Of a DNA stretch of 20,000 bases, positions 10,357-20,000 are shown one piece after another. Positions within the stretch are counted from its first letter, which is position 1, and each line of letters opens with the position of its first letter. Source of the DNA: an uncultured virus (IMG/VR IMGVR_UViG_3300034065_000114) (lineage: Duplodnaviria; Heunggongvirae; Uroviricota; Caudoviricetes); IMG/VR virus record IMGVR_UViG_3300034065_000114, positions 54,472 through 74,471 of that record; one strand, 5' to 3'. The position numbers were made by a program, and so were the translations under genes. The notes beneath the pieces were generated by a model. That model was not told where the DNA came from, searched no databases, and saw nothing but the letters and a program-made list of their open reading frames with translations.

Positions 10357-12345
10357 GTGGCCGATAGCCCCTCACAAGTTCAAAACCTGGACCCGAACCT
10401 AGAGTTGGGGTCTGGTAGTAATTCTGCGTCGCGCTACCCCAACCCGTTCTTCGATCTCGCTCAACAGTACATGCCTCCGACGATCAAGGAGCTGTTCCGT
10501 TGGTGCACGTTCTATTACTACAACTCGCCGATCATTGGCGCGGCGATCCGCAAGGTCAGCCGCTACCCGATTACCGACCTGATCCTAGACGACGAACTCG
10601 AGTCGGTGCGCACGCTGTGGTCGACGATCTTCAACGACTACTTGAAGATCAAGTCCAGGCTGATGGAGATCAACCTCGACTACTACGCTTACGGCAACTC
10701 GTTCGTCTCGATGCACTTGCCGTTCACGCGGTTCTTGATCTGCCGCGGCTGCAAGAAGAGCATGCCCATCCGTCAGTGGGAGTGGAGCTTCCGCTCAGCT
10801 GTGTTCGGCTTCCAAGGTGCATGCCCCGGCTGCGGCAAGACGTGCGACCTCGACGTTAAAGACGTGCCCTACAAGGATCTCCGAGGCATCCGCCTAATCA
10901 GGTGGAACCCGGAGAACATGCAGCTCAAGTTCAACGAATACACGGGCCGCTACATTTACATGTACATGGTCCCGTCGAAGCTTAAGAACGCGATCATGCG
11001 CGGGGACAAGGACATCCTTGAGGACATCCCGCTTGTCGTGCTCGAGGCGGTGAAGAAGCGCCGCATGATCCGCTTCAATCAGGACAACCTCTTCCATCTG
11101 AAGGCGCCGACACTTGCCGAGCAGGATCAGGGCTGGGGCAAGCCACTCATCCTGAACGTCCTGAAGGACATGTACTATTTCTACACCTTGCGCCGCGCGC
11201 AGGAAGCAATCGCCAACGAGCACATTGTGCCGTTCGACGTCATCCACCCGTTGCCAAACGGCCAGCAGGATCCGTACGTCCACACGGACCTCGGCAACTG
11301 GAAGATGAAGATCGAGGGCTTGATCAAACGCCACCGGCGCGACCCGAACTTCAAGGCTGTCATCCCAATCCCTGTCGGGTTTGGCCGCTTAGGCGGGGAT
11401 GGCAAAGCTTTGCTACTCAGCCCTGAGATGAACTTCATCACCCAGACCGTCGTTGGCGGGATGGGGCTGCCGCAGGAGTTCCTCTTCGGGGGCCTGAACT
11501 ACACGGGCTCGTCAATCTCGCTTCGCACGCTTGAAAACGACTTCATTCAGAACCGCGCGCAGATGCTGGACCTCTGCATTTGGATAAAGGCCAAGATCCG
11601 CAACTGGATGGCGCTTCCCAACGTCAAGTCGATTCGGTTCGCGGACTTCCGCATGGCGGACGACGTTCAACGCAACCAGCAGCTAATTGGCCTCAACGCC
11701 CAGGGCAAGGTCTCTGACCAGACCATGCTGACTGAACTCGGTTATGACTACGACCAAGAAGTCAAGAAGAGAATTGAGGAAATCTTCGTTGCCAACTACC
11801 TGAACGACCTGGTCGCGAAGGGTGGCGCGAAGAGCCAAGGTGAGGCGTCGCTCATCGCCTACAACTACCAGTCCAAAGTGCAAGAGCTCGCGGCGCGCGG
11901 CGCGGCCGCGGCGGATGCGCGGCTTGGCTTGCCGCCGGGGACGACCGAAGCTACCCAATCCGGCACGCCAGTTCCTGGCCAGGGAGACCCCGCACTAGAA
12001 CAGGGCGCAGCTCCGTCTGGCGGGGCCGCTGGCGCATCGGAACACCCGACTGGTGGCCAGGCTGACCAAGCGACCCAGCAAGCGTCCATGGACCAGCAGA
12101 TCCAATCCAAGGTCCAGGGCTGGGCAACCAAGCTCACCCAGATGCAGCCGGCGCAGGCTCAACTTACCATATCCCAGCTTAAGTCCAAGATGCCTGAGAT
12201 CGGCCTGCAGGTTGAGAAGGCCTATCGGATGCTCCTCGCGGGCGCGCAGCCTGGGGCTGGCGCTAAGGGGCCTGCGGCTGGTATGGAAGTCAACATGGAT
12301 CCGATGCCTACCCAAGGCGCTCCTAGGCGTGCTGGGACGGTCTGA
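10357..12345 (+). CDS. Phage portal protein with Zn-ribbon insert and Q/A/G-rich tail
   Basis: Portal-type motifs in order: SPIIGAAI, LDYYAYGNSFV, LIRWNPENM, NLFHLK...GWGKPLI, GMGLPQEFLFGGLNYTGSSISL, IRFADFRMAD, VSDQTMLTELGYD; GGGGAG RBS. Confidence 0.8.
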   Translation: MADSPSQVQNLDPNLELGSGSNSASRYPNPFFDLAQQYMPPTIKELFRWCTFYYYNSPIIGAAIRKVSRYPITDLILDDELESVRTLWSTIFNDYLKIKSRLMEINLDYYAYGNSFVSMHLPFTRFLICRGCKKSMPIRQWEWSFRSAVFGFQGACPGCGKTCDLDVKDVPYKDLRGIRLIRWNPENMQLKFNEYTGRYIYMYMVPSKLKNAIMRGDKDILEDIPLVVLEAVKKRRMIRFNQDNLFHLKAPTLAEQDQGWGKPLILNVLKDMYYFYTLRRAQEAIANEHIVPFDVIHPLPNGQQDPYVHTDLGNWKMKIEGLIKRHRRDPNFKAVIPIPVGFGRLGGDGKALLLSPEMNFITQTVVGGMGLPQEFLFGGLNYTGSSISLRTLENDFIQNRAQMLDLCIWIKAKIRNWMALPNVKSIRFADFRMADDVQRNQQLIGLNAQGKVSDQTMLTELGYDYDQEVKKRIEEIFVANYLNDLVAKGGAKSQGEASLIAYNYQSKVQELAARGAAAADARLGLPPGTTEATQSGTPVPGQGDPALEQGAAPSGGAAGASEHPTGGQADQATQQASMDQQIQSKVQGWATKLTQMQPAQAQLTISQLKSKMPEIGLQVEKAYRMLLAGAQPGAGAKGPAAGMEVNMDPMPTQGAPRRAGTV

Positions 12346-12560
12346 TGAATCACAAGACCAGGAAGACCGTAAAGATAGACACTGACGACGCCGAGGACCG
12401 CGACGCGTACGACGCGATTCTTAACGACCCCATGTGCACCATCGTTAAAGAGATCCAAGAAAAACTGACCACGATGGAATACAACGAGGATGGAAAACCA
12501 TCCCACAAATCCGATAGAATAGTGCTTATCGTCACCTACGAGAAGAAGGAACTCCTATGA
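12345..12560 (+). CDS. Small hypothetical protein
   Basis: TGATG and ATGA coupling to the neighbouring genes. Confidence 0.75.
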   Translation: MNHKTRKTVKIDTDDAEDRDAYDAILNDPMCTIVKEIQEKLTTMEYNEDGKPSHKSDRIVLIVTYEKKELL

Positions 12561-13237
12561 AGCAGTTTAAAACGTTCAAGAAAACCACCGTAGGTTGGAA
12601 GCCGCAAAGCGAGTCCAGCGCGGGCCTCGGCAAGACCGCAGAAGACGCGAGCAAGGAGGAACTCCGCTCGGAACTAAAAAAGCACGAGGAGCGGGAGACC
12701 CCCGCTCAGGAGAAGGCTGAATCGGCCAAAGAACAGGAGATTGAGCGCAAAGCTGGGGTTGAGACCAAGCATGCGCATGACCTCGACGCCGCCGAGCGCA
12801 ACGCGATCCCCTCCGGTGAATTTGCTGAGCCCGAAAAGCGCAAATACCCGATCGAAGACCGCGCGCACGCCGCCAACGCCAAAGCGCGAGTCTCGCAGCA
12901 TGGCACGCCCGCCGAGAAGGCGAAAGTCGACGCTGCCGTCGAACGCAAATACCCCGACATGGGCGAAAAGAAAGCCGCCGACGCCAAAGCGCTAAAAGCC
13001 CTCGCCAGTAAGGTGATCAAGAAGGAGCACCCGACCTCCATGATCATGGCCGCCCAGCGCGCGCAGAAAGCCGGCATGAAAAAGAAAGCCGACGACCCGC
13101 AAACCGCCGGCGCCGCCATGCAGAACTCGATGGTCAACGCCTTCGAAGGTAAGCCGTCGCCCTCGACCGCCTCCGCGCCGTCGATGTCCCTTGGCGCCAC
13201 GATCACTGACCAGATCAACAAGCTTCGTGGCGGCTGA
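12557..13237 (+). CDS. Highly charged putative internal head protein with a DUF6582-like domain
   Basis: AAGGA RBS; LDAAERNAIPSGEFAEPEKRKYPIEDRAHAANAKARVSQ; segments bounded by KTA, KHA and KKA. Confidence 0.75.
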   Translation: MKQFKTFKKTTVGWKPQSESSAGLGKTAEDASKEELRSELKKHEERETPAQEKAESAKEQEIERKAGVETKHAHDLDAAERNAIPSGEFAEPEKRKYPIEDRAHAANAKARVSQHGTPAEKAKVDAAVERKYPDMGEKKAADAKALKALASKVIKKEHPTSMIMAAQRAQKAGMKKKADDPQTAGAAMQNSMVNAFEGKPSPSTASAPSMSLGATITDQINKLRGG

Positions 13238-13270
13238 TAGCTAAAGAAACCGGGAGGATTACCCCCCGGT
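13237..13270 (-). terminator. Leftward terminator (possibly bidirectional): hairpin + TTTCTTTAGCTAT
   Basis: Minus strand ACCGGGGGG-TAAT-CCTCCCGGT-TTCTTTAGCTAT. The one stem irregularity is a G-U pair only on the minus strand; located between convergent genes. Confidence 0.75.
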
Positions 13271-13600
13271 CTTTCGGTGCGAACGCGTCCGGTGGCTCTT
13301 AAGGCCCCGGGCGCTTTTCGCAACGAACCGACACAACGTGCACGCTAGCTCCGGATCTGGCACGTGCTTACCTGAATGTTTTGAGGGAATCAGATCGAGC
13401 TGAATGCCCGTGGTGCCCACCACATTCTCCGCTGCGGCGAAGACCTCCTTTGTTTTCTCGACGAATCCAGGGTGACTCTTGAGGTACGCCCTCAAAGAGT
13501 CGCAATAGCGACGGCACACTTTGTACCGATCGAAGTGAACGCAGGCAGTGGCCGGGCGCCGACCACCGAACCGCGGGCACTCGATAAAGTGATCAAGCAC
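13259..13600 (-). CDS. Cys-rich protein with C-terminal classical C2H2 zinc finger
   Basis: CTLC-x12-H-x4-H (CTLCRFVAKSARGLKSHRTRSH) plus four N-terminal Cys; GTG start coupled to the upstream TAG. Confidence 0.8.
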   Translation of the reverse strand: MLDHFIECPRFGGRRPATACVHFDRYKVCRRYCDSLRAYLKSHPGFVEKTKEVFAAAENVVGTTGIQLDLIPSKHSGKHVPDPELACTLCRFVAKSARGLKSHRTRSHRKTGG

Positions 13601-14013
13601 TAGCGGCCAAAGTTAGGCGCCAAGCCAGGCCAGGAATCCCCTGACGGCGGCGGCGCGTAGTTGCCTGATCTGTAATCATTTGGCCCTGGGCTAAACCCAC
13701 GGGAAAAAGCAGTCGCTACCGGCGCCGGTGCAACGGGTAGCGGCTGTGCGCCACTTATCCCAAATCTCTCCTTGACCGCATCGACCTCTGGCCCATGCCC
13801 CTTCCCAAACTTCCTCCCCATCTCGATCATTGCGTGGCCACCAGCTACAATAGCCATCTCGCCCGCTACCCTGAAGGCTGTTTTTAGTGTGAAAACCAAC
13901 AGATCCCTCCAGAAGGAGGCGGTGACTAGCTGGCCAAACAAATCGTTGACCAGCACACCTACGGACTTGACAAGTCCCTTGTTTGCCTCAATGGCAGGTT
14001 GTGGTTTCTGCAT
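13600..14013 (-). CDS. Hypothetical protein, amphipathic N-half and Pro/Gly-rich tail
   Basis: GAGGAGG RBS 9 nt before ATG; coupled to the Zn-finger gene. Confidence 0.75.
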   Translation of the reverse strand: MQKPQPAIEANKGLVKSVGVLVNDLFGQLVTASFWRDLLVFTLKTAFRVAGEMAIVAGGHAMIEMGRKFGKGHGPEVDAVKERFGISGAQPLPVAPAPVATAFSRGFSPGPNDYRSGNYAPPPSGDSWPGLAPNFGR

Positions 14014-14092
14014 CTACCTTGGCCTCCTCTGTGCTAGACTTACGTGGGGCGGACAGGATAATTTCAATGGCGATTTCAAGTAGCTCGATCAA
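13988..14092 (-). CDS. Possible 34-aa peptide (not in ORF track)
   Basis: AAGGAGG RBS 7 nt before TTG; MIELLEIAIEIILSAPRKSSTEEAKVDAETTTCH*; first ORF after promoter copy 2. Confidence 0.5.
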   Translation of the reverse strand: MIELLEIAIEIILSAPRKSSTEEAKVDAETTTCH

Positions 14093-14115
14093 CCAGTTCC
14101 CTCCTTGAAATTAAC

Positions 14116-14137
14116 TTCTTCTCAAGGGGCTTATACC
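14116..14137 (-). promoter_or_regulatory. Putative phage-specific promoter, copy 2
   Basis: Minus strand GGTATAAGCCCCTTGAGAAGAA; the core ends 37 nt before TTG 14092. Confidence 0.65.
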
Positions 14138-14145
14138 AAAGGCCT

Positions 14146-17100
14146 ATGCGAAATTTTGACCCCACACAGCAGTTCGCTGCGATCAAGAAGTCGGCCACTG
14201 ATGCGGTCAAAGAGATCTTCCCCGTTGAGGGCAAGCTCCGCACGATCCGCTTGGTAGACGTGACCGTCAACGACACGCTGGATCCGACCGACTATAAGTC
14301 GCAAGTCCAGTCCAAGGAGCGCGAAGGTACTTGGGGCGCCCCCGTCATGGCCGAGCTTGAGCTCGTGGATAAAACCACAAACAAAGTGATCGACAAGGCT
14401 AAGGTCAAACTCTTCACTTTGCCAAAGCTGACCAACCGTTTCAGCTACATCGTCAACGGCAACGAATACCAAGTGCACAACCAGCTTCGCTTGAAGTCTG
14501 GTGTGTACACCCTGCGTAAGCAGAACGGAGAACTCAAGACGCAAGTAAACCTTGCGAAGGGGAAGAACTTTGACCTTGCCTTTAACGAACGTACAGGATT
14601 ATTCACGATCCAAAAAGTGGGCGGCGGCCAAGCGAATATCCCTCTCTACCCTGTTCTTACTCATCTCGGTATTAGTCCTACTGGTATTGCCACTGCTTGG
14701 GGCTCTCAACTACAGCAAGCTAACTCTAAGGCCGACCCCAAAGCCGTCGCCCGCACCGAGTCAGCATTCGGGATCAAACCGGGCGAGCTGAAAGACTACC
14801 TAGCGAAGACCGTGCTAAACCCTGAGACGACGAAGACCGTGCTAGGCCAGAGCTACGAGCGCGTCGACGGCCCGCTGCTGCTCGCCGCGGCGAAAGACCT
14901 CCTGCAAGTCCACCTCGGCCAGAAGGAGCCGACCGACCGCGACTCGCTGGCGTTCAAAGAGCTGCACTCGGTCGAGGACTTCATCCACGAGCGCATCCAA
15001 AAGAATAAACAGCCCCTGGCCTTCAAGCTTCGCCGCAACGTCGACAACCTCAAGCGTGACAAATTGTCACAAATTGTGAATCCCGGCGCGTTCCAGTCGA
15101 CCGTCGAAGGCTTCTTCACCCAAGACGATAAGAGCGCCACGCCTGAGCAGACCAACCCAGTCGAGATGCTCGCCGGCCAATACATGACGACGATCATGGG
15201 CTCGGGCGGCATTGGTTCCGACCATGCCGTGACGGCAGGCATGCGCGAGATTCATCCGTCACATTACGGGTTTATGGACCCGATACACACGCCGGAGTGC
15301 TACGACCCCGAAACAGAAGTGCTAACCCAAGAAGGCTGGAAGAAGTGGCCTGACGTAACCAAGAAGGATCTCTTCGCCTGCCGTATAGACGGCGAGCTGC
15401 AATTCCATAAAGCTGAGGCCCTACACCGCAGCCACTACGAAGGGACCATGTACGGGGCGCAGACCGGCAAGCTTGACTACTTGGTTACGCCTAATCACCG
15501 TATGCTCGTGCGCCCGCTGGACTCGAAATTAAACGCTTGGCGTATTGCCTCTGCCGAAGAGATTCACCGCAAACCCAGAACGTTCTGCACCACACATGAA
15601 CCATTCAAGGGCAATAGCGACTTCACTCGCTATGCCTTTCAGTACGTGCCCGGCAGCAACTCCATGGTCCATACAGAGAGTGTGGATATCGGGGACTGGT
15701 GTGAGTTCATGGGGTGGTTCCTGGCAGAAGGCAGCACCCACATCTCTTCGAAGGTGTCTGACTACCGCGTGCACATCTTCCAAAGCAAAGAAGCCAACCC
15801 AGAGAGCTGCGCCCGGATTGAGAGACTCTTAAACCGGTTACCCTGGACTTGGAGCTTCAGCAGCGGGAACGCATACACCATTTGTGGCAAGGAACTCGTT
15901 TGCCAACTAAACGGTCAGGGCTACTGCGACACTAAGTTCATACCTACTGAGCTGCTATCTGCACCCGTCGCCGCAAGAACCAGGATGCTAGAGGCCCTCT
16001 TGCGGGGGGATGGGCGCATAGACTCTGTCAGGGCAACCGGGGTTCGCTATAAGCAACAGGTGTTTACCACCACAAGCAAACGACTGGCCGAGGGCTTTGA
16101 GCAATTAGCCATAGGCCTCGGTTACTCAGTCCGCACTGGGCAATACAAAGACAAACGGGAAGAGCGATACCTCGACACTTACGAAGTCAGGTTACTACAG
16201 CGTCTTACCCGCTCGGCGAGAAAGCACAACAATCGTCGGAAGAGCTGCGACTACTTTACTACCCAGTATTGTGGCGAGGTTCACTGCGCCACAGTGCCAG
16301 GCGGCCTCTTGTTCGTACGCAGAAACGGCAGCGTACCCATCTGGCTAGGCAACAGCTCGCGTGTGGGTGTAAACATGCACCTACCCATGGGCATACAGAA
16401 AGACGGTAAAGACCTCAAGATGACCGTGCTGCGCCCCGACGGCCGGACGAGCACGACGATCAACCCGACTGAAGCCTACGAAGCGCGGGTCGCGTTCCCC
16501 GGCCAAATGCCCGGCGACTCGCCGACGGTAAAGGTCCAGTACCGCGGCAAGTCTATCGTTGTTCCACGTGGAACAGTCGACTACTACACACCCGCGCCGT
16601 CGGCGCTCTTCTCCTGGTCGACCAACCTGATCCCGTTCTTGCCATCGACCCAGGGCAACCGGTCGATGATGGCCTCGAAGATGATCGAGCAGGCTATCGC
16701 GCTCAAGCACAGGGAAGCACCGCTGATCCAAGTGGAGTCGAAACCCGGGTCGTCGTTTGAGGAGAACATCGGCAACAGCCTGGCGATCCTGGCACCGGCC
16801 GACGGCGTGATCAAAAAGGTCACGAAGGACGCGTTAGTGCTACGCACAAGCGAAGGCGACAAGATCTTCAATCTCTATAACAACTTCACGCTCAACCGTA
16901 AGTCCTTCATGAACCACGAGCCGCTCGTGAAGGTCGGCGACCGCGTCAAGAAGGGGCAAGTCCTCGCGGATAGCAACTTCACCAAGGGCGGCACGCTCGC
17001 GCTTGGCACCAACATGCGTGTGGCCTACCTCCCCTATAAAGGTCTGAACTTCGAAGACGGGATCGTCATCACTGAGTCCGCCGCGGACAAGCTGACAAGC

Positions 17101-20000
17101 GAACACATCCACAAGAAGAGCAAGGATCTCAGCGACGCCAACATCCTTGGTCTCTCCGCCTTCCGTAGCTTCTACCCAAACACGCTATCCGCACAGAACA
17201 TGGCCAAGCTTGACGAGCAGGGCATCATCAAGAAGGGACAGACGGTCCGCCACGGCGAAGCCCTTGCGGCTATCCTCCAGCGCCGCGGTGCGTCGCCCAT
17301 GATCAGCGTCGTCAACCGCGCGCTATCCGAACGCCCCAAAGACGCGTCCATGTATTGGACGCTCGAGGACGACGGCCAGGTTATTGACGTGCAGAAGACA
17401 CCGACCGGCGTCACCGTGTGCGTGAAGACCGAAGAGCGCGCCCGCATCGGGGACAAGCTCTCCGGCCGCTACGGCAACAAGGGTATCATCACCAAGATCC
17501 TGGCCGACAAGGAAGCGCCGCGCGACGCGTCAGGAAAGCCCGTCGAGATCTTGCTCAATCCTCACGGCGTTATCACCCGTATCAACGTCAGCCAGATCTA
17601 TGAAAGCGCTACCAGCAAGGCCGCGCTCAAGGCTGGCAAGCCTATCAGGGTCAGCAACTTTGACGGCGGGAACAACCTTGACCTTACGAAGGGGATTATC
17701 GACAAGGCGGGCACTCCCGACAAAGAGGAGCTTTTTGACCCAACGACCGGGAAGAGTCTCGGCAAAGTCCATGTCGGTAACCCCTATATCCTAAAATTAT
17801 TCAAGCAAGGTACGGTCAACTTCTCTGTCCGTCAAGGCGGCCCCGGCAATCCTTACGATGCCACAAACCGTCAGCCACTTAAAGCCGGCGGTGAAGAGGG
17901 CGCGAAGGCTATGGACGTGCTCACTACGTATGCCATGCTGGCCCACGGCGCACGCGCTAATCTAAGAGAAATGGGGACGATCAAGAGCGACCAGAACGAC
18001 GAGTTCTGGAAGGCTTTGAAGTCCGGCCAGCCACTGCCGCCGCCCAAGTCCCCGTTTGTCTACGACAAGTTCATGGGCTACCTGCGCGCCGCGGGCATTG
18101 ACGTTAAGAAAGACGGGAGCAAGCTCACGCTGGCGCCCCTGACGGATAAGCAGGTTCTTAAGCAAAGCTCCGGCGAGATTAAGAACATCCAGTTCTACCG
18201 CGGCAAAGGCGAAGGCGAGAAAGAGCCAATGAAGGGCGGCTTCTTTGACAAGACGCTCACCGGCGGCTACAAGGGCGAGAAGTGGAACCACATCGAGCTT
18301 CATGAGCCGGTGGTCAACCCTGTCTTCGAAGTCGCAGTCAGCAAGCTCACCGGCCTCGGCAAAAAGTACGACGACGTCGTCGCCGGCAAACTGCATTTGG
18401 ACCCCAAAACAGGGTTGTTTAATACCGAGGGCAAGGGCCTGACCGGCGGGCGCGCCGTTGAACATTTGTTAAAGCAAATCGACGTCGACGCCGAGATGAA
18501 GTCGCAGCTGCGCATCGCTAGCAAGGCCACCGGCGCCGCGCTCGACGACGCCAATAAGCGCATGCGCTATTTAACTGCGTTAAAAGTTAACGGCCTGAGC
18601 CCTGCGGAAGCCTACATCCGCAAGTCCGTGCCGATCCTGCCGCCGGCCTACCGGCCAATCTATCCTTTACCGGATGGGTCGATGGGCAGCTCGGACATCA
18701 ACTATCTCTACCAGCACGCCGGTGTGCTCAACACCATGGCGAAGCTGCCAGTCATGGACCTCCTCGCCGAAGAGGAGAAGGCTGGAATCCGCAGCGACGT
18801 CAACCAGTCCGTCAAAGCGATTGCGGGTCTGACTGACCTGGCGATCAAGGGCCGCACGCGGGAAGGCTTCATCTCCGAGATCAAAGGCGGCACTGGCGGC
18901 CAGCCCAAAGAGGGCTTCTTCATCAGCAAGATGATCTCGAAGAAACAGGACTTCGTCGGCCGCGGCACGATCATCCCCGAGCCCGATCTCGGCATCGACG
19001 AGATGGCCATGCCCGAAGAGATGGCATGGAAGCTTTTCGAGCCATTCGTTATTCGCGAATTGAAGAACCACGGGAAGAACCCGCTGCAAGCCCAGGATGA
19101 GATTAAGAATAAAACCCCCTTGGCAAAGCGCGCGCTCGACATCGTCATGGCCCAGCGCCATGTCCTGCTCAACAGAGCGCCGTCGCTGCACAAGTTCTCA
19201 ATCATGGCCTTCCGCCCCAAGATCACTGCCGGCCGCGCGCTGAAGATTCCACCGCTAGTTTGCAAAGGATTTAATGCTGACTTCGACGGCGATGATCAAC
19301 AGAATTTGATAGCGACATTCGTAACAAATGAAGGTATAAGCAATCTGTTAAAGATTGTAAAGCCATCTTTTGTTACGGAGAGGATCATGACAGCCCGATT
19401 TAAGGTTCAACTGCCGACCATGAATCATAAAGGTGAGATTTTATTGTTCAACTTAGAAGACTTTCCCCATGGAGAGCTTCTAGGCAGCAAAGAAGGGGAA
19501 AAGGGTAGGATAGATTTCTACAGGGCACTGCCAGGATTCCATGTTGTGGCCCACGATGCTGTCACTGGCAGGTTGGATTGGAAGCCGGTGTTTGGTTGGT
19601 CGAAGCACTACCAGCGCGAGGTAGAAGTTGTTACGCTTGCCAGCGGGCAGCAAATAATCACGGATGATGATCCGCGGGCTATTTACGGAATCGCGCGCGG
19701 TAGCCTAGAATTTAGCCGCTTCCGCCCTAAAGATGCCACAGGTGTCTTTGTTCCAAGAGCCTCCAGAATCACTTTAGACGGGGCTCCTATTTACAATGCA
19801 GTGCCTTTTGGTGATAAAGAATTGCAACCGCTCAATGAGGACTTTGGTTACTTCGTTGGCTGTTTGGTCTCCAACGGGTGGGTTGAGCATCATCTAGAAA
19901 AACCTACAGGGAGGGTTTTCCTCGCAGCTAAGACAGAGGAAGTCTCCAGAAAATACCTGCGCATAGTAAAAGAATTATTCGGCGATCGCCACATTTGTCG
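14146..20000 (+). CDS. rpoBC: Fused beta-beta' DNA-directed RNA polymerase precursor with two intein(-like) inserts; truncated by window end
   Basis: One open frame from ATG 14146. Beta motifs: SYIVNGNEY, IHPSHYGFMDPIHTPE, LIPFLPSTQGNRSMMASKMIEQA, GLNFEDGI, GDKLSGRYGNKG, LLNPHGVITRIN, EMGTIKSD. Beta' motifs: HIEL, VPILPPAYRP, KKQDFVGRGTI, LLNRAPSLH, FNADFDGD (NADFDGD at 19273-19293). Confidence 0.95.
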   Translation, partial: MRNFDPTQQFAAIKKSATDAVKEIFPVEGKLRTIRLVDVTVNDTLDPTDYKSQVQSKEREGTWGAPVMAELELVDKTTNKVIDKAKVKLFTLPKLTNRFSYIVNGNEYQVHNQLRLKSGVYTLRKQNGELKTQVNLAKGKNFDLAFNERTGLFTIQKVGGGQANIPLYPVLTHLGISPTGIATAWGSQLQQANSKADPKAVARTESAFGIKPGELKDYLAKTVLNPETTKTVLGQSYERVDGPLLLAAAKDLLQVHLGQKEPTDRDSLAFKELHSVEDFIHERIQKNKQPLAFKLRRNVDNLKRDKLSQIVNPGAFQSTVEGFFTQDDKSATPEQTNPVEMLAGQYMTTIMGSGGIGSDHAVTAGMREIHPSHYGFMDPIHTPECYDPETEVLTQEGWKKWPDVTKKDLFACRIDGELQFHKAEALHRSHYEGTMYGAQTGKLDYLVTPNHRMLVRPLDSKLNAWRIASAEEIHRKPRTFCTTHEPFKGNSDFTRYAFQYVPGSNSMVHTESVDIGDWCEFMGWFLAEGSTHISSKVSDYRVHIFQSKEANPESCARIERLLNRLPWTWSFSSGNAYTICGKELVCQLNGQGYCDTKFIPTELLSAPVAARTRMLEALLRGDGRIDSVRATGVRYKQQVFTTTSKRLAEGFEQLAIGLGYSVRTGQYKDKREERYLDTYEVRLLQRLTRSARKHNNRRKSCDYFTTQYCGEVHCATVPGGLLFVRRNGSVPIWLGNSSRVGVNMHLPMGIQKDGKDLKMTVLRPDGRTSTTINPTEAYEARVAFPGQMPGDSPTVKVQYRGKSIVVPRGTVDYYTPAPSALFSWSTNLIPFLPSTQGNRSMMASKMIEQAIALKHREAPLIQVESKPGSSFEENIGNSLAILAPADGVIKKVTKDALVLRTSEGDKIFNLYNNFTLNRKSFMNHEPLVKVGDRVKKGQVLADSNFTKGGTLALGTNMRVAYLPYKGLNFEDGIVITESAADKLTSEHIHKKSKDLSDANILGLSAFRSFYPNTLSAQNMAKLDEQGIIKKGQTVRHGEALAAILQRRGASPMISVVNRALSERPKDASMYWTLEDDGQVIDVQKTPTGVTVCVKTEERARIGDKLSGRYGNKGIITKILADKEAPRDASGKPVEILLNPHGVITRINVSQIYESATSKAALKAGKPIRVSNFDGGNNLDLTKGIIDKAGTPDKEELFDPTTGKSLGKVHVGNPYILKLFKQGTVNFSVRQGGPGNPYDATNRQPLKAGGEEGAKAMDVLTTYAMLAHGARANLREMGTIKSDQNDEFWKALKSGQPLPPPKSPFVYDKFMGYLRAAGIDVKKDGSKLTLAPLTDKQVLKQSSGEIKNIQFYRGKGEGEKEPMKGGFFDKTLTGGYKGEKWNHIELHEPVVNPVFEVAVSKLTGLGKKYDDVVAGKLHLDPKTGLFNTEGKGLTGGRAVEHLLKQIDVDAEMKSQLRIASKATGAALDDANKRMRYLTALKVNGLSPAEAYIRKSVPILPPAYRPIYPLPDGSMGSSDINYLYQHAGVLNTMAKLPVMDLLAEEEKAGIRSDVNQSVKAIAGLTDLAIKGRTREGFISEIKGGTGGQPKEGFFISKMISKKQDFVGRGTIIPEPDLGIDEMAMPEEMAWKLFEPFVIRELKNHGKNPLQAQDEIKNKTPLAKRALDIVMAQRHVLLNRAPSLHKFSIMAFRPKITAGRALKIPPLVCKGFNADFDGDDQQNLIATFVTNEGISNLLKIVKPSFVTERIMTARFKVQLPTMNHKGEILLFNLEDFPHGELLGSKEGEKGRIDFYRALPGFHVVAHDAVTGRLDWKPVFGWSKHYQREVEVVTLASGQQIITDDDPRAIYGIARGSLEFSRFRPKDATGVFVPRASRITLDGAPIYNAVPFGDKELQPLNEDFGYFVGCLVSNGWVEHHLEKPTGRVFLAAKTEEVSRKYLRIVKELFGDRHIC
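15298..16353 (+). mobile_element. Intein (352 aa) with LAGLIDADG homing endonuclease in the beta moiety
   Basis: TPE|CYDPETEVLTQEGW (block A), VTPNHRM (B), FMGWFLAEG and LEALLRGDG (C, E), TTTSKRLAEG (H), VHCATVPGG (F), WLGN|S (G). Removing it gives TPE-SSRVG, matching bacterial TPEGPNIG. Confidence 0.93.
19294..20000 (+). mobile_element. Atypical intein-like HINT/LAGLIDADG insert directly after the catalytic NADFDGD (partial)
   Basis: RNAP homology stops at NADFDGD and the DNA becomes AT-richer. HINT-like VVAHDAVTGRLDWKPV...VVTLASGQQIITDDDPRAIY; LAGLIDADG-like DFGYFVGCLVSNGW. Confidence 0.8.
19333..19389 (+). promoter_or_regulatory. Promoter motif copy 3 with RBS and in-frame ATG inside the intein-like insert
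   Basis: GGTATAAGCAATCTGTTAAAGA (15/22 to copy 1), GGAGAGG at 19377-19383, ATG at 19387. Confidence 0.5.

Follow-up and report, generated by a model that had tools for sequence, protein, structure and literature searches.

How could a protein insert be removed from the catalytic loop of an RNA polymerase if it lacks the residues that begin splicing in studied inteins? The question is raised by the final 20 kb of a 74,471-bp contig from an uncultured virus of the class Caudoviricetes (IMG/VR record IMGVR_UViG_3300034065_000114, positions 54,472 to 74,471). We call this whole stretch of 20,000 nucleotides the window. Pfam finds Rpb2_6 (5e-50) and Rpb2_3, then Rpb1_1 and Rpb1_2 (2e-25), in its open reading frame (ORF) at 14146-19998, and because beta domains are followed by beta' domains in a single frame we take the product to be a fused beta-beta' RNA polymerase (RNAP). 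A preliminary description, made from the DNA letters alone, had reported that an intein-like insert beginning DQQNLIATF, with no Cys, Ser or Ala at residue 1, follows the NADFDGD motif of this protein, and the junction is indeed at 19294. We put a probability of about 0.85 on the insert being a genuine splicing intein, the window's member of a family without a residue-1 nucleophile; judging from the family's sequences, the chemistry of its first step is probably uncharacterised.

The contig end falls inside the insert, leaving only 235 of its approximately 515-520 amino acids in the window. The C-terminal junction therefore lies beyond it, as had been said, and the gene is not continued elsewhere: a tblastn search of the contig with the homologue P0002 matched only residues 1-1589, and the first bases of the contig, which are the start of a tandem repeat, do not extend the ORF. 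Taken alone, the window fragment gave only DUF903 (E 0.18) in Pfam and no match in the Protein Data Bank; among viral contigs it found no related loci, nor did the last 34 nt of the window have an exact match there. A tblastn search against 50,697 phage records hit 32 records, in all of them through the extein part only (at most 34% of the query), with the insert in none. Because the fragment was uninformative by itself, an alignment of the family was needed. A homologue search with residues 1640-1951 of the ORF scored 8000 candidates and placed 7238 of them at E <= 0.001, with a listing of the best 120; with a profile, 615 of 1.84 billion representatives matched at E <= 1e-30, and the best 150 of these were listed. 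Loci on viral and metagenome contigs and the profile matches together gave 213 full-length inserts, 202 of them unique, and 20 C-terminal fragments. The profile included seven extein residues on each side, and full-length rows had to align to this flank.

Comparison of homologues with and without the insert fixed its boundaries, from residue 1 to a terminal Asn followed by Thr at position +1. Insert-free relatives (approximately 2007 amino acids) read NADFDGD|TMTVHVP. Relatives of at least approximately 2520 amino acids carry a homologous insert, 31-64% identical, that starts straight after NADFDGD and ends ...G-V-I-L-S-N, after which the host resumes with T-M-T-V-H-V-P and no extein residue is lost or doubled. 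The insertion is thus in frame with exact host resumption in the homologues, the window copy itself showing the N-junction only. By sequence, the element is a LAGLIDADG-type mobile intein of approximately 515 amino acids at a D|T site, between the last Asp of NADFDGD and the next Thr. The N-junction could be located in 99 of 127 new profile-matched representatives, always after D-x-D-G-D; in the other 28 the protein begins within the insert or the anchor missed the junction. No host protein other than RNAP occurred among the best 150 of the 615 representatives, although the extein residues in the profile limit what this says about site-exclusivity.

Across 18 members, Pfam reported Intein_splicing in 16 and LAGLIDADG_3 in 17. 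The family profile matched the solved structures of PI-PkoII (5e-6), PI-PfuI (7e-5) and the Ssp DnaB mini-intein (8e-4), with blocks F and G and the LAGLIDADG region aligned. An AlphaFold2 model of one relative, L001, was built from an 18-row alignment that included the window fragment, which is 47% identical to L001; its predicted local distance difference test score (pLDDT) was 82.8 and its predicted template modelling score 0.84. In the model, residues 5-11 form a confident first strand, residues 12-20 a helix and residues 27-39 a low-confidence loop. The top Foldseek matches were intein homing endonucleases, namely TliVMA (3e-21), PI-PkoII (3e-18), PI-PfuI (3e-17) and PI-SceI (about 1e-11), the range extending to 1e-9. 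The predicted architecture of L001 is HINT plus LAGLIDADG endonuclease, the same overall as in the canonical LAGLIDADG inteins TliVMA (7qss), PI-PkoII (2cw7), PI-PfuI (1dq3) and PI-SceI. The earlier assignment to an intein-type insert is upheld by this fold, by the profile matches and by the exact resumption of RNAP in homologues.

Residue 1 is variable: among the 202 unique full-length inserts we counted Q 83, E 27, D 23, A 17, L 10, C 7, N 6, S 6, G 6, F 5, M 4, R 3 and 5 others. The Cys1 and Ser1 members, only 13 together, are dispersed tips of the tree and have retained the Asp of block B position 10 (B:10; other block positions are written likewise). Residue 2 is Gln in 140 and Cys in 16. 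Position 103 is Ser in 207 and Thr in 13 of 220 aligned sequences, and position 105 is His in all 220. The block B consensus is T-D-D-D-P-R-A-V-Y-G, with Thr in 186, Ser in 25, Ala in 8 and Val in 1 at B:7, Asp in 219 at B:8, Asp in 195 and Asn in 21 at B:9, Asp in 219 and His in 1 at B:10, Pro in 189 and Glu in 28 at B:11, and Arg in all 220 at B:12. Among the 217 sequences aligned at the C-terminal end, F:4 is Asp in every one, F:6 is Thr in 204, Ser in 10 and Cys in 3, F:13 is Phe in 212, Trp in 4 and Tyr in 1, G:5 is Leu in 208, and G:6 is Ser in 210, His in 3, Pro in 3 and Lys in 1; the terminal Asn (G:7) and Thr+1 are present in all 217. In the block alignment with canonical inteins of the same site, T-D-D-D falls on T-D-D-H, and the block B His has therefore been replaced by Asp. 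This bears out the earlier statement that block B has neither the His of TxxH nor the class 3 Trp, B:12 being Arg. Every family-invariant position within the 235 residues of the window copy is intact, and there are no stops. Of the residues whose conservation the preliminary description had wished to see followed up, TDDDPRA is conserved and Gln2 is frequent (140/202), whereas Asp1 is found in only 23 of 202. The same description had proposed an undescribed, possibly Asp-based, mechanism; undescribed chemistry at the N-junction is a fair inference, since the signatures of classes 1 and 3 are absent, but Asp1 is excluded as its agent by a residue 1 that varies from Gln to Glu to Asp and beyond, and in two split forms is Phe or Leu.

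Three mechanistic classes of intein have been recognised since 2010, each with a defined first-step nucleophile. Sections of PMC2807308 and PMC4031507 describe class 1 as needing Cys, Ser or Thr at residue 1 and using His B:10, and class 3 as needing Trp B:12, Cys F:4 and Thr G:5, with His B:10 again essential; in the corresponding section of PMC4031507, class 2 inteins are orthologues of KlbA; they carry Ala1, Ser G:6 and Cys+1 and depend on Thr B:7, His B:10 and Asp F:4. The family departs from class 1 at residue 1 (Asp in the window copy; Cys in 7 and Ser in 6 of 202) and at B:10 (Asp in 219 and His in 1 of 220). None of the class 3 residues is in place, with Arg at B:12 (220/220), Asp at F:4 (217/217) and Leu at G:5 (208/217). 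Three class 2 residues are shared, Ser G:6 (210/217), Thr B:7 (186/220, with Ser in 25) and Asp F:4 (217/217); the combination of Ala1 with Cys+1 is not, since only 17 of 202 have Ala1 and all 217 have Thr+1, nor is His B:10, where the family has Asp, nor KlbA orthology, the host being a phage RNAP. The C-terminal Asn and Thr+1 expected of an intein are each present in 217 of 217, at positions outside the window for its own copy. Bacterial intein-like (BIL) domains lack a +1 nucleophile and sit in variable, non-essential hosts, whereas this family has an invariant Thr+1 and lies at the catalytic loop of RNAP. The group I and II introns are set apart by the open frame, the selection at protein level and the lack of an Rfam match.

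By analogy, the family is most like class 2 in how it would work, yet it is not a class 2 member. With the KlbA intein of M. jannaschii and its orthologues, as these are presented in part of PMC4031507, it shares the lack of a residue-1 nucleophile, Ser G:6, Thr B:7, Asp F:4, the terminal Asn and the need to begin splicing by attack on an amide rather than a (thio)ester. It differs from them, on the same account, in having a variable residue 1 instead of Ala1, Thr+1 instead of Cys+1, Asp instead of the essential His B:10, an invariant Arg B:12 and a phage RNAP host, and it also has an extra segment of approximately 35 residues after the first strand. The class 3 intein of mycobacteriophage Bethlehem DnaB, in the sections of PMC2807308 devoted to it, resembles the family in its non-nucleophilic residue 1, Thr or Ser at +1 and phage association; the family lacks the Trp/Cys/Thr triplet and has Asp in place of the essential His B:10. 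Two canonical inteins at the same RNAP site (P0088 and P0090) share with it the D|T junction, the block F motif Y-D-L-T-V, the terminal Asn and Thr+1. Like the canonical LAGLIDADG inteins generally, they have Cys1 or Ser1 and a block B T-x-x-H; the family has neither, and has no His at F:13 or G:6.

Several lines of evidence bear on whether the insert still functions. Over the whole insert, the ratio of nonsynonymous to synonymous substitution rates (dN/dS) was 0.14 for the pair L026/L027 and 0.09 for L005/L006, the remaining pairs being saturated. The P0024 insert, of approximately 385 amino acids, has no LAGLIDADG motifs and retains W-S-x-H and block B, and the profile match of P0080 has a comparable gap covering the initial portion of the endonuclease region (profile positions 170-288). 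Loss of the endonuclease with the splicing motifs kept usually indicates that selection maintains splicing whether or not homing persists. The window's own clade may have a weakened endonuclease, to judge from the Asn at its first LAGLIDADG acidic position. At 19294 the base composition breaks exactly, from an extein GC of 0.586 (0.78 at third codon positions, GC3) to an insert GC of 0.470 (GC3 0.48). In GC-rich hosts the insert lies below its flanks and nevertheless tracks the host (flank/insert/flank GC3 of 0.79/0.54/0.77 in L003 and 0.96/0.86/0.94 in L023), which is the pattern of a mobile element that stays temporarily before moving on. An assembly artefact is excluded at the junction, because contigs from an independent study cross it with 0 differences (X3 over 19071-20000 and X4 over 19191-19473). 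The contig of run X3, from an independent peat metagenome study, is 1446 nt long and extends 516 nt beyond the window end, into what should be the rest of the intein. Contigs of the four runs placed on the window had no joints skipping the insert, which is uninformative either way on intein-less alleles since contigs drop rare variants; among the sequencing runs listed as holding window sequence, none is recorded as RNA.

The insert must leave, since the enzyme would be blocked by a domain of approximately 515 amino acids on its catalytic Mg loop, and from this position and from its conservation we infer that it is removed by protein splicing. The alternative that it does not splice, whether as a domain that is retained or as a remnant, decayed or parasitic, by which this copy of RNAP is inactivated, draws on the absence of the key catalytic residues of studied inteins, on splicing being a prediction from sequence here and on the Asn at the first LAGLIDADG acidic residue in the window's clade. 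We regard it as very improbable in view of the dN/dS of 0.09-0.14, the 615 representative clusters that match at E <= 1e-30, the endonuclease-deleted forms that keep the splicing blocks (P0024 was the one examined) and the invariance of the terminal Asn and of blocks F and G across 217 sequences at 30-60% identity. Established RNAP structure would not accommodate a 515-residue domain at this loop, and the window contig, itself incomplete, holds no second RNAP copy. The copy is not a decayed allele, because its non-canonical features are family-wide and conserved; with a HINT fold predicted and RNAP resuming after the homologous inserts, none of the outcomes that the preliminary description had named as fatal to its reading occurred. 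An RNA-level intron or an assembly chimera might be suspected from the sharp GC break at 19294. Either is scarcely credible given a frame that stays open, an insert conserved as protein, the absence of any Rfam intron match at E <= 1 in 14000-20000, the same junction in approximately 200 homologues and the independent contigs that bridge it without differences.

As to the route, no Cys, Ser or Thr at residue 1 and no class 3 Cys F:4 are available, and for this reason we favour direct attack by Thr+1, in the manner of class 2, as the likeliest of the routes considered, although we give it somewhat less than an even chance. On this analogy, the Thr+1 hydroxyl, activated by Asp F:4, would attack the amide between Asp(-1) and residue 1 to give the block G branched ester, with the block B Asp triad and Arg taking over the activating role of His B:10. 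Asn cyclisation would then release the intein, and an O-to-N shift would form the peptide bond of NADFDGD-TMTVH; these standard last steps are kept in the scheme because the terminal Asn and Thr+1 are invariant. Such a route would need no new nucleophile and would parallel class 2, all of whose inteins, as a passage of PMC4031507 puts it, have Ser G:6, no residue-1 nucleophile and a need for Asp F:4.

A number of observations weigh against our account of the insert as a splicing intein that follows this route. Excision is predicted from conservation and position, and the window copy lacks the C-terminal half, so that its blocks F and G and its +1 residue are known only from relatives at most 64% identical. 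The NCBIfam intein C-terminal model matches only 4 of 18 members, and the families reported for these 18 did not include its N-terminal counterpart. The presence of Asp(-1) in 202 of 202 members is a count partly forced by the extein flank in the profile, to which full-length rows were required to align. The analogy with class 2 is loose, since class 2 uses Cys+1 and requires His B:10 whereas the family has Thr+1, much weaker toward an amide, and Asp B:10. Finally, the invariant Ser/Thr103 and His105 play no part in the route as proposed.

These last residues are the basis of one rival, in which an internal hydroxyl would act in the manner of class 3: Ser/Thr103, in a triad with His105 and a block B Asp, or Thr/Ser/Cys F:6 would attack the N-junction amide and then pass the N-extein to Thr+1. 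Attack on an amide by a hydroxyl normally needs a His base, and His105 (220/220) is the only invariant His of the splicing domain; position 103 (Ser 207, Thr 13 of 220) and F:6 (Thr 204, Ser 10, Cys 3 of 217) are likewise hydroxyl-bearing throughout or nearly so. Yet canonical inteins of the same site (P0088, P0090, P0091 and P0104) carry T-x-H at this place, and the motif therefore predates the loss of the residue-1 and block B catalysts; PI-PkoII also has the His. By hairpin register, residue 103 would pair beyond B:10 by several residues, at a distance from the scissile bond, and Thr at F:6 is common in ordinary inteins. We consider the internal hydroxyl improbable and rank it equal with a second rival, both of them below direct attack by Thr+1. 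In that second rival, which we think similarly improbable, the extein would supply the chemistry. Asp(-1) would attack its own backbone carbonyl, forming a cyclic aspartic anhydride and freeing the intein N-terminus, and the anhydride would be opened by the Thr+1 hydroxyl or, after Asn cyclisation, by the amine; in a metal-assisted variant, Mg2+ held between the D-x-D-G-D loop and the block B Asp triad would polarise the scissile carbonyl. This would explain a variable residue 1, as expected if the nucleophile is on the extein side, and would fit the Asp(-1) of all 202 members (the alignment to the flank having favoured this count), the want of any member at another site among the best 150 of 615 representatives, and the invariant acidic block B adjoining the junction (B:8 219/220, B:9 195/220, B:10 219/220) with Arg B:12. 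However, RNAP function fixes Asp(-1) in any case and each intein is specific to its site, which deprives the association of discriminating power, and canonical Cys1/Ser1 inteins (P0088 and P0090) occupy the same D|T site. An anhydride could also yield an isoAsp link at a catalytic residue. Cleavage and linkage through an aspartic anhydride has a precedent in the self-processing module of FrpC, as described in parts of PMC7078468 and PMC7846742, although that module cleaves Asp-Pro, and Pro is not among the commonest residue-1 types listed for the family. The likeness to FrpC is one of chemistry only (cleavage after Asp, then acyl transfer); in the same parts of these two papers the module is Ca2+-triggered and cleaves Asp-Pro, its fold and family are unrelated, and we claim no homology. 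Beyond these routes, it is conceivable but doubtful that the family represents a fourth mechanistic class, which would break the N-junction amide without a thiol, a residue-1 nucleophile or a block B His, via the Asp(-1) anhydride or a Mg2+ shared by the D-x-D-G-D loop and the Asp triad. Splicing and phage transcription could then be metal-gated, and the same chemistry would operate in split forms with an N-fragment of 21-24 residues.

One further candidate, the Thr of M-T-A-R-F as a hidden residue-1 nucleophile, with the first 31 amino acids staying in RNAP, was rejected: the position is Thr or Ser in only 59 of 99 (Ala in 20), and intein-less alleles have no such segment. Asp1 as the catalyst was rejected as well, residue 1 being variable among the 202 members.

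Some relatives are naturally split. The polymerase ORF continues past NADFDGD for only 24 codons in L008 (5798-8100) and 21 in L030 (5800-8136), in tails that begin Phe-Gln and Leu-Gln, respectively. It is closely followed by a second ORF, which encodes an L-x-D-x-P strand, W-S-x-H, T-D-D-D-P-R-A-V-Y-G, both LAGLIDADG motifs and blocks F and G, and ends with L-S-N|T-M-T-Y-Y-V-P and approximately 85 residues of C-extein. Such an arrangement is evidence, at the level of sequence, that the insert acts as protein. Complex prediction for the two halves of L008 gave a median score of 0.28 against a mark of 0.32. Eleven further representatives that begin with Met at profile positions 38-60 (P0150, P0154, P0156, P0170, P0176, P0200, P0201, P0207, P0244, P0245 and P0248) look like the same kind of second ORF, as judged from proteins without upstream DNA. 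Known atypical split inteins of the AceL-TerL and GOS-TerL type keep a residue-1 nucleophile, Cys or Ser. L008 and L030 resemble them in their very short N-fragments and in lying in phage genes; they differ in starting with Phe or Leu and in a C-fragment that keeps the full endonuclease, and the window copy is contiguous. The 205-kb contig of L030 has another intein, in an NrdD (anaerobic ribonucleotide reductase) gene at 11693-13882 (Pfam NRDD 2e-25, Intein_splicing 4e-11 and LAGLIDADG_3).

The start of the split second ORF coincides with a conserved Met; its counterpart in the window is Met32, with ATG at 19387-19389, where the copy reads through without a split. Of the 17 contiguous copies for which DNA was available, 15 have ATG or GTG as this codon. 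A GGAG, GAGG or AGGA 4-mer lies 4-17 nt upstream of it in 12 of the 17, compared with a 0.11 background taken from the remaining codons of these ORFs (binomial p 1.5e-8, with rows that are not all independent, L005 and L006 being close relatives). Because the Glu codon that provides GAG is conserved and the residue after it is variable (G, D, V or R), the pattern points to selection on the nucleotides of a Shine-Dalgarno-like motif. Frequent interconversion of contiguous and split forms and a separate product made from Met32 both fit such an internal start signal.

Inteins of other kinds also follow this loop. Six (P0091, P0099, P0101, P0104, P0105 and P0107) belong to a separate canonical family with Ser1, a block B His and an end of ...H-N|T. 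All six hosts read NADFNGD, with Asn-Gly for the middle Mg-binding Asp-Gly; that this Asn-Gly undergoes deamidation is only a guess. A third type, related to the main family, is represented by P0113 and P0121, in which NADFDGN is followed by Cys1 and block B has no His (S-x-N-E/D-S). These inserts end in Asp, not Asn, before T-M-H-V-H; compared with the main family, the -1 Asn and the terminal Asp seem to have changed places.

A large family of inteins without a residue-1 nucleophile or catalytic histidines is apparently undescribed. As of 2009, according to a section of PMC2807308, a residue-1 nucleophile was missing outside class 3 only in five KlbA orthologues and one Arthrobacter intein, and the latter is termed a pseudogene in the title of the later PMC3196547. 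The available text of PMC6892783 concerns a PolB intein, and the RNAP inteins in that of PMC4760082 are archaeal only. We found no full-text paper on this family, its block B motif or a fourth intein class in a search that left subscription journals and supplements outside. With the known first-step nucleophiles and all three assisting histidines missing at a site that demands removal, how the amide is activated becomes a testable question. The family would need no cysteine and would ligate at an Asp|Thr junction, and its natural split members have N-fragments of 21-24 residues, a size within reach of peptide synthesis; cysteine independence, short N-fragments and Asp|Thr ligation are properties sought for protein semisynthesis and for oxidising conditions. 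Splicing at this position would also act as a post-translational switch in the catalytic loop of a phage's RNA polymerase.

Table 1. Features of the RNAP gene and its insert at 19294, in window coordinates.
Feature	Position	Strand	Observation
Fused RNA polymerase beta-beta' gene	14146..19998	+	1951 codons in window, 3' open at contig end; Pfam Rpb2_6, Rpb2_3, Rpb1_1, Rpb1_2; full-length insert-free homologues ~2007 aa
NADFDGD Mg-binding loop; Asp at -1	19273..19293	+	-1 Asp in 202/202 aligned family members (selection required the flank to align)
N-terminal 235 aa of LAGLIDADG intein without nucleophile, ended by contig end	19294..19998	+	63% identity to P0002 insert
Intein residues 1-10, D-Q-Q-N-L-I-A-T-F-V: non-nucleophilic residue 1, Gln2, first beta-strand	19294..19323	+	Gln2 in 140/202; equivalent strand pLDDT ~85 in L001 model
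In-frame Shine-Dalgarno-like GGAGAGG (19377-19383) and ATG of Met32 (19387-19389)	19377..19389	+	At second-ORF start of split relatives
Strand motif N-L-E-D-F-P-H-G-E (Leu54, Phe57, Pro58 conserved)	19450..19476	+	L 96, F 91, P 97 of 99
W-S-K-H motif (Ser103, His105)	19597..19608	+	Ser/Thr 220/220, His 220/220 aligned; T-x-H also in canonical inteins of same site
Block B, Q-I-I-T-D-D-D-P-R-A-I-Y-G: Thr B:7 kept, Asp for His B:10, Arg B:12	19651..19689	+	Alignment to canonical inteins and family
First LAGLIDADG motif, F-G-Y-F-V-G-C-L-V-S-N-G-W-V; Asn at usual catalytic Asp position	19843..19884	+	Family D 179, N 33 of 218 aligned; Asn throughout window's clade

The contig is neither circularly closed nor terminally redundant when checked at 20-200 nt, and the tandem repeat at its positions 1-300, outside the window, reads (P-G-Q-V-G)n in one frame. 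Among the 14 ORFs upstream of the RNAP gene, the sole PHROG match of known function is a weak one to portal protein (10357-12345, + strand, 1.2e-6), and the ORF at 12557-13237 matches a PHROG family of unknown function; the near-absence of family matches fits a poorly characterised phage. The RNAP ORF hosts two inteins, the other being at 15298-16353 (+ strand) in the beta part. This other intein, of 352 amino acids, is a canonical class 1 element that starts H-T-P-E|C-Y-D-P..., has T-P-N-H in block B and two LAGLIDADG motifs, and ends ...W-L-G-N|S-S-R-V-G. Its GC3 of 0.66 is far nearer the host value than is that of the insert at 19294.

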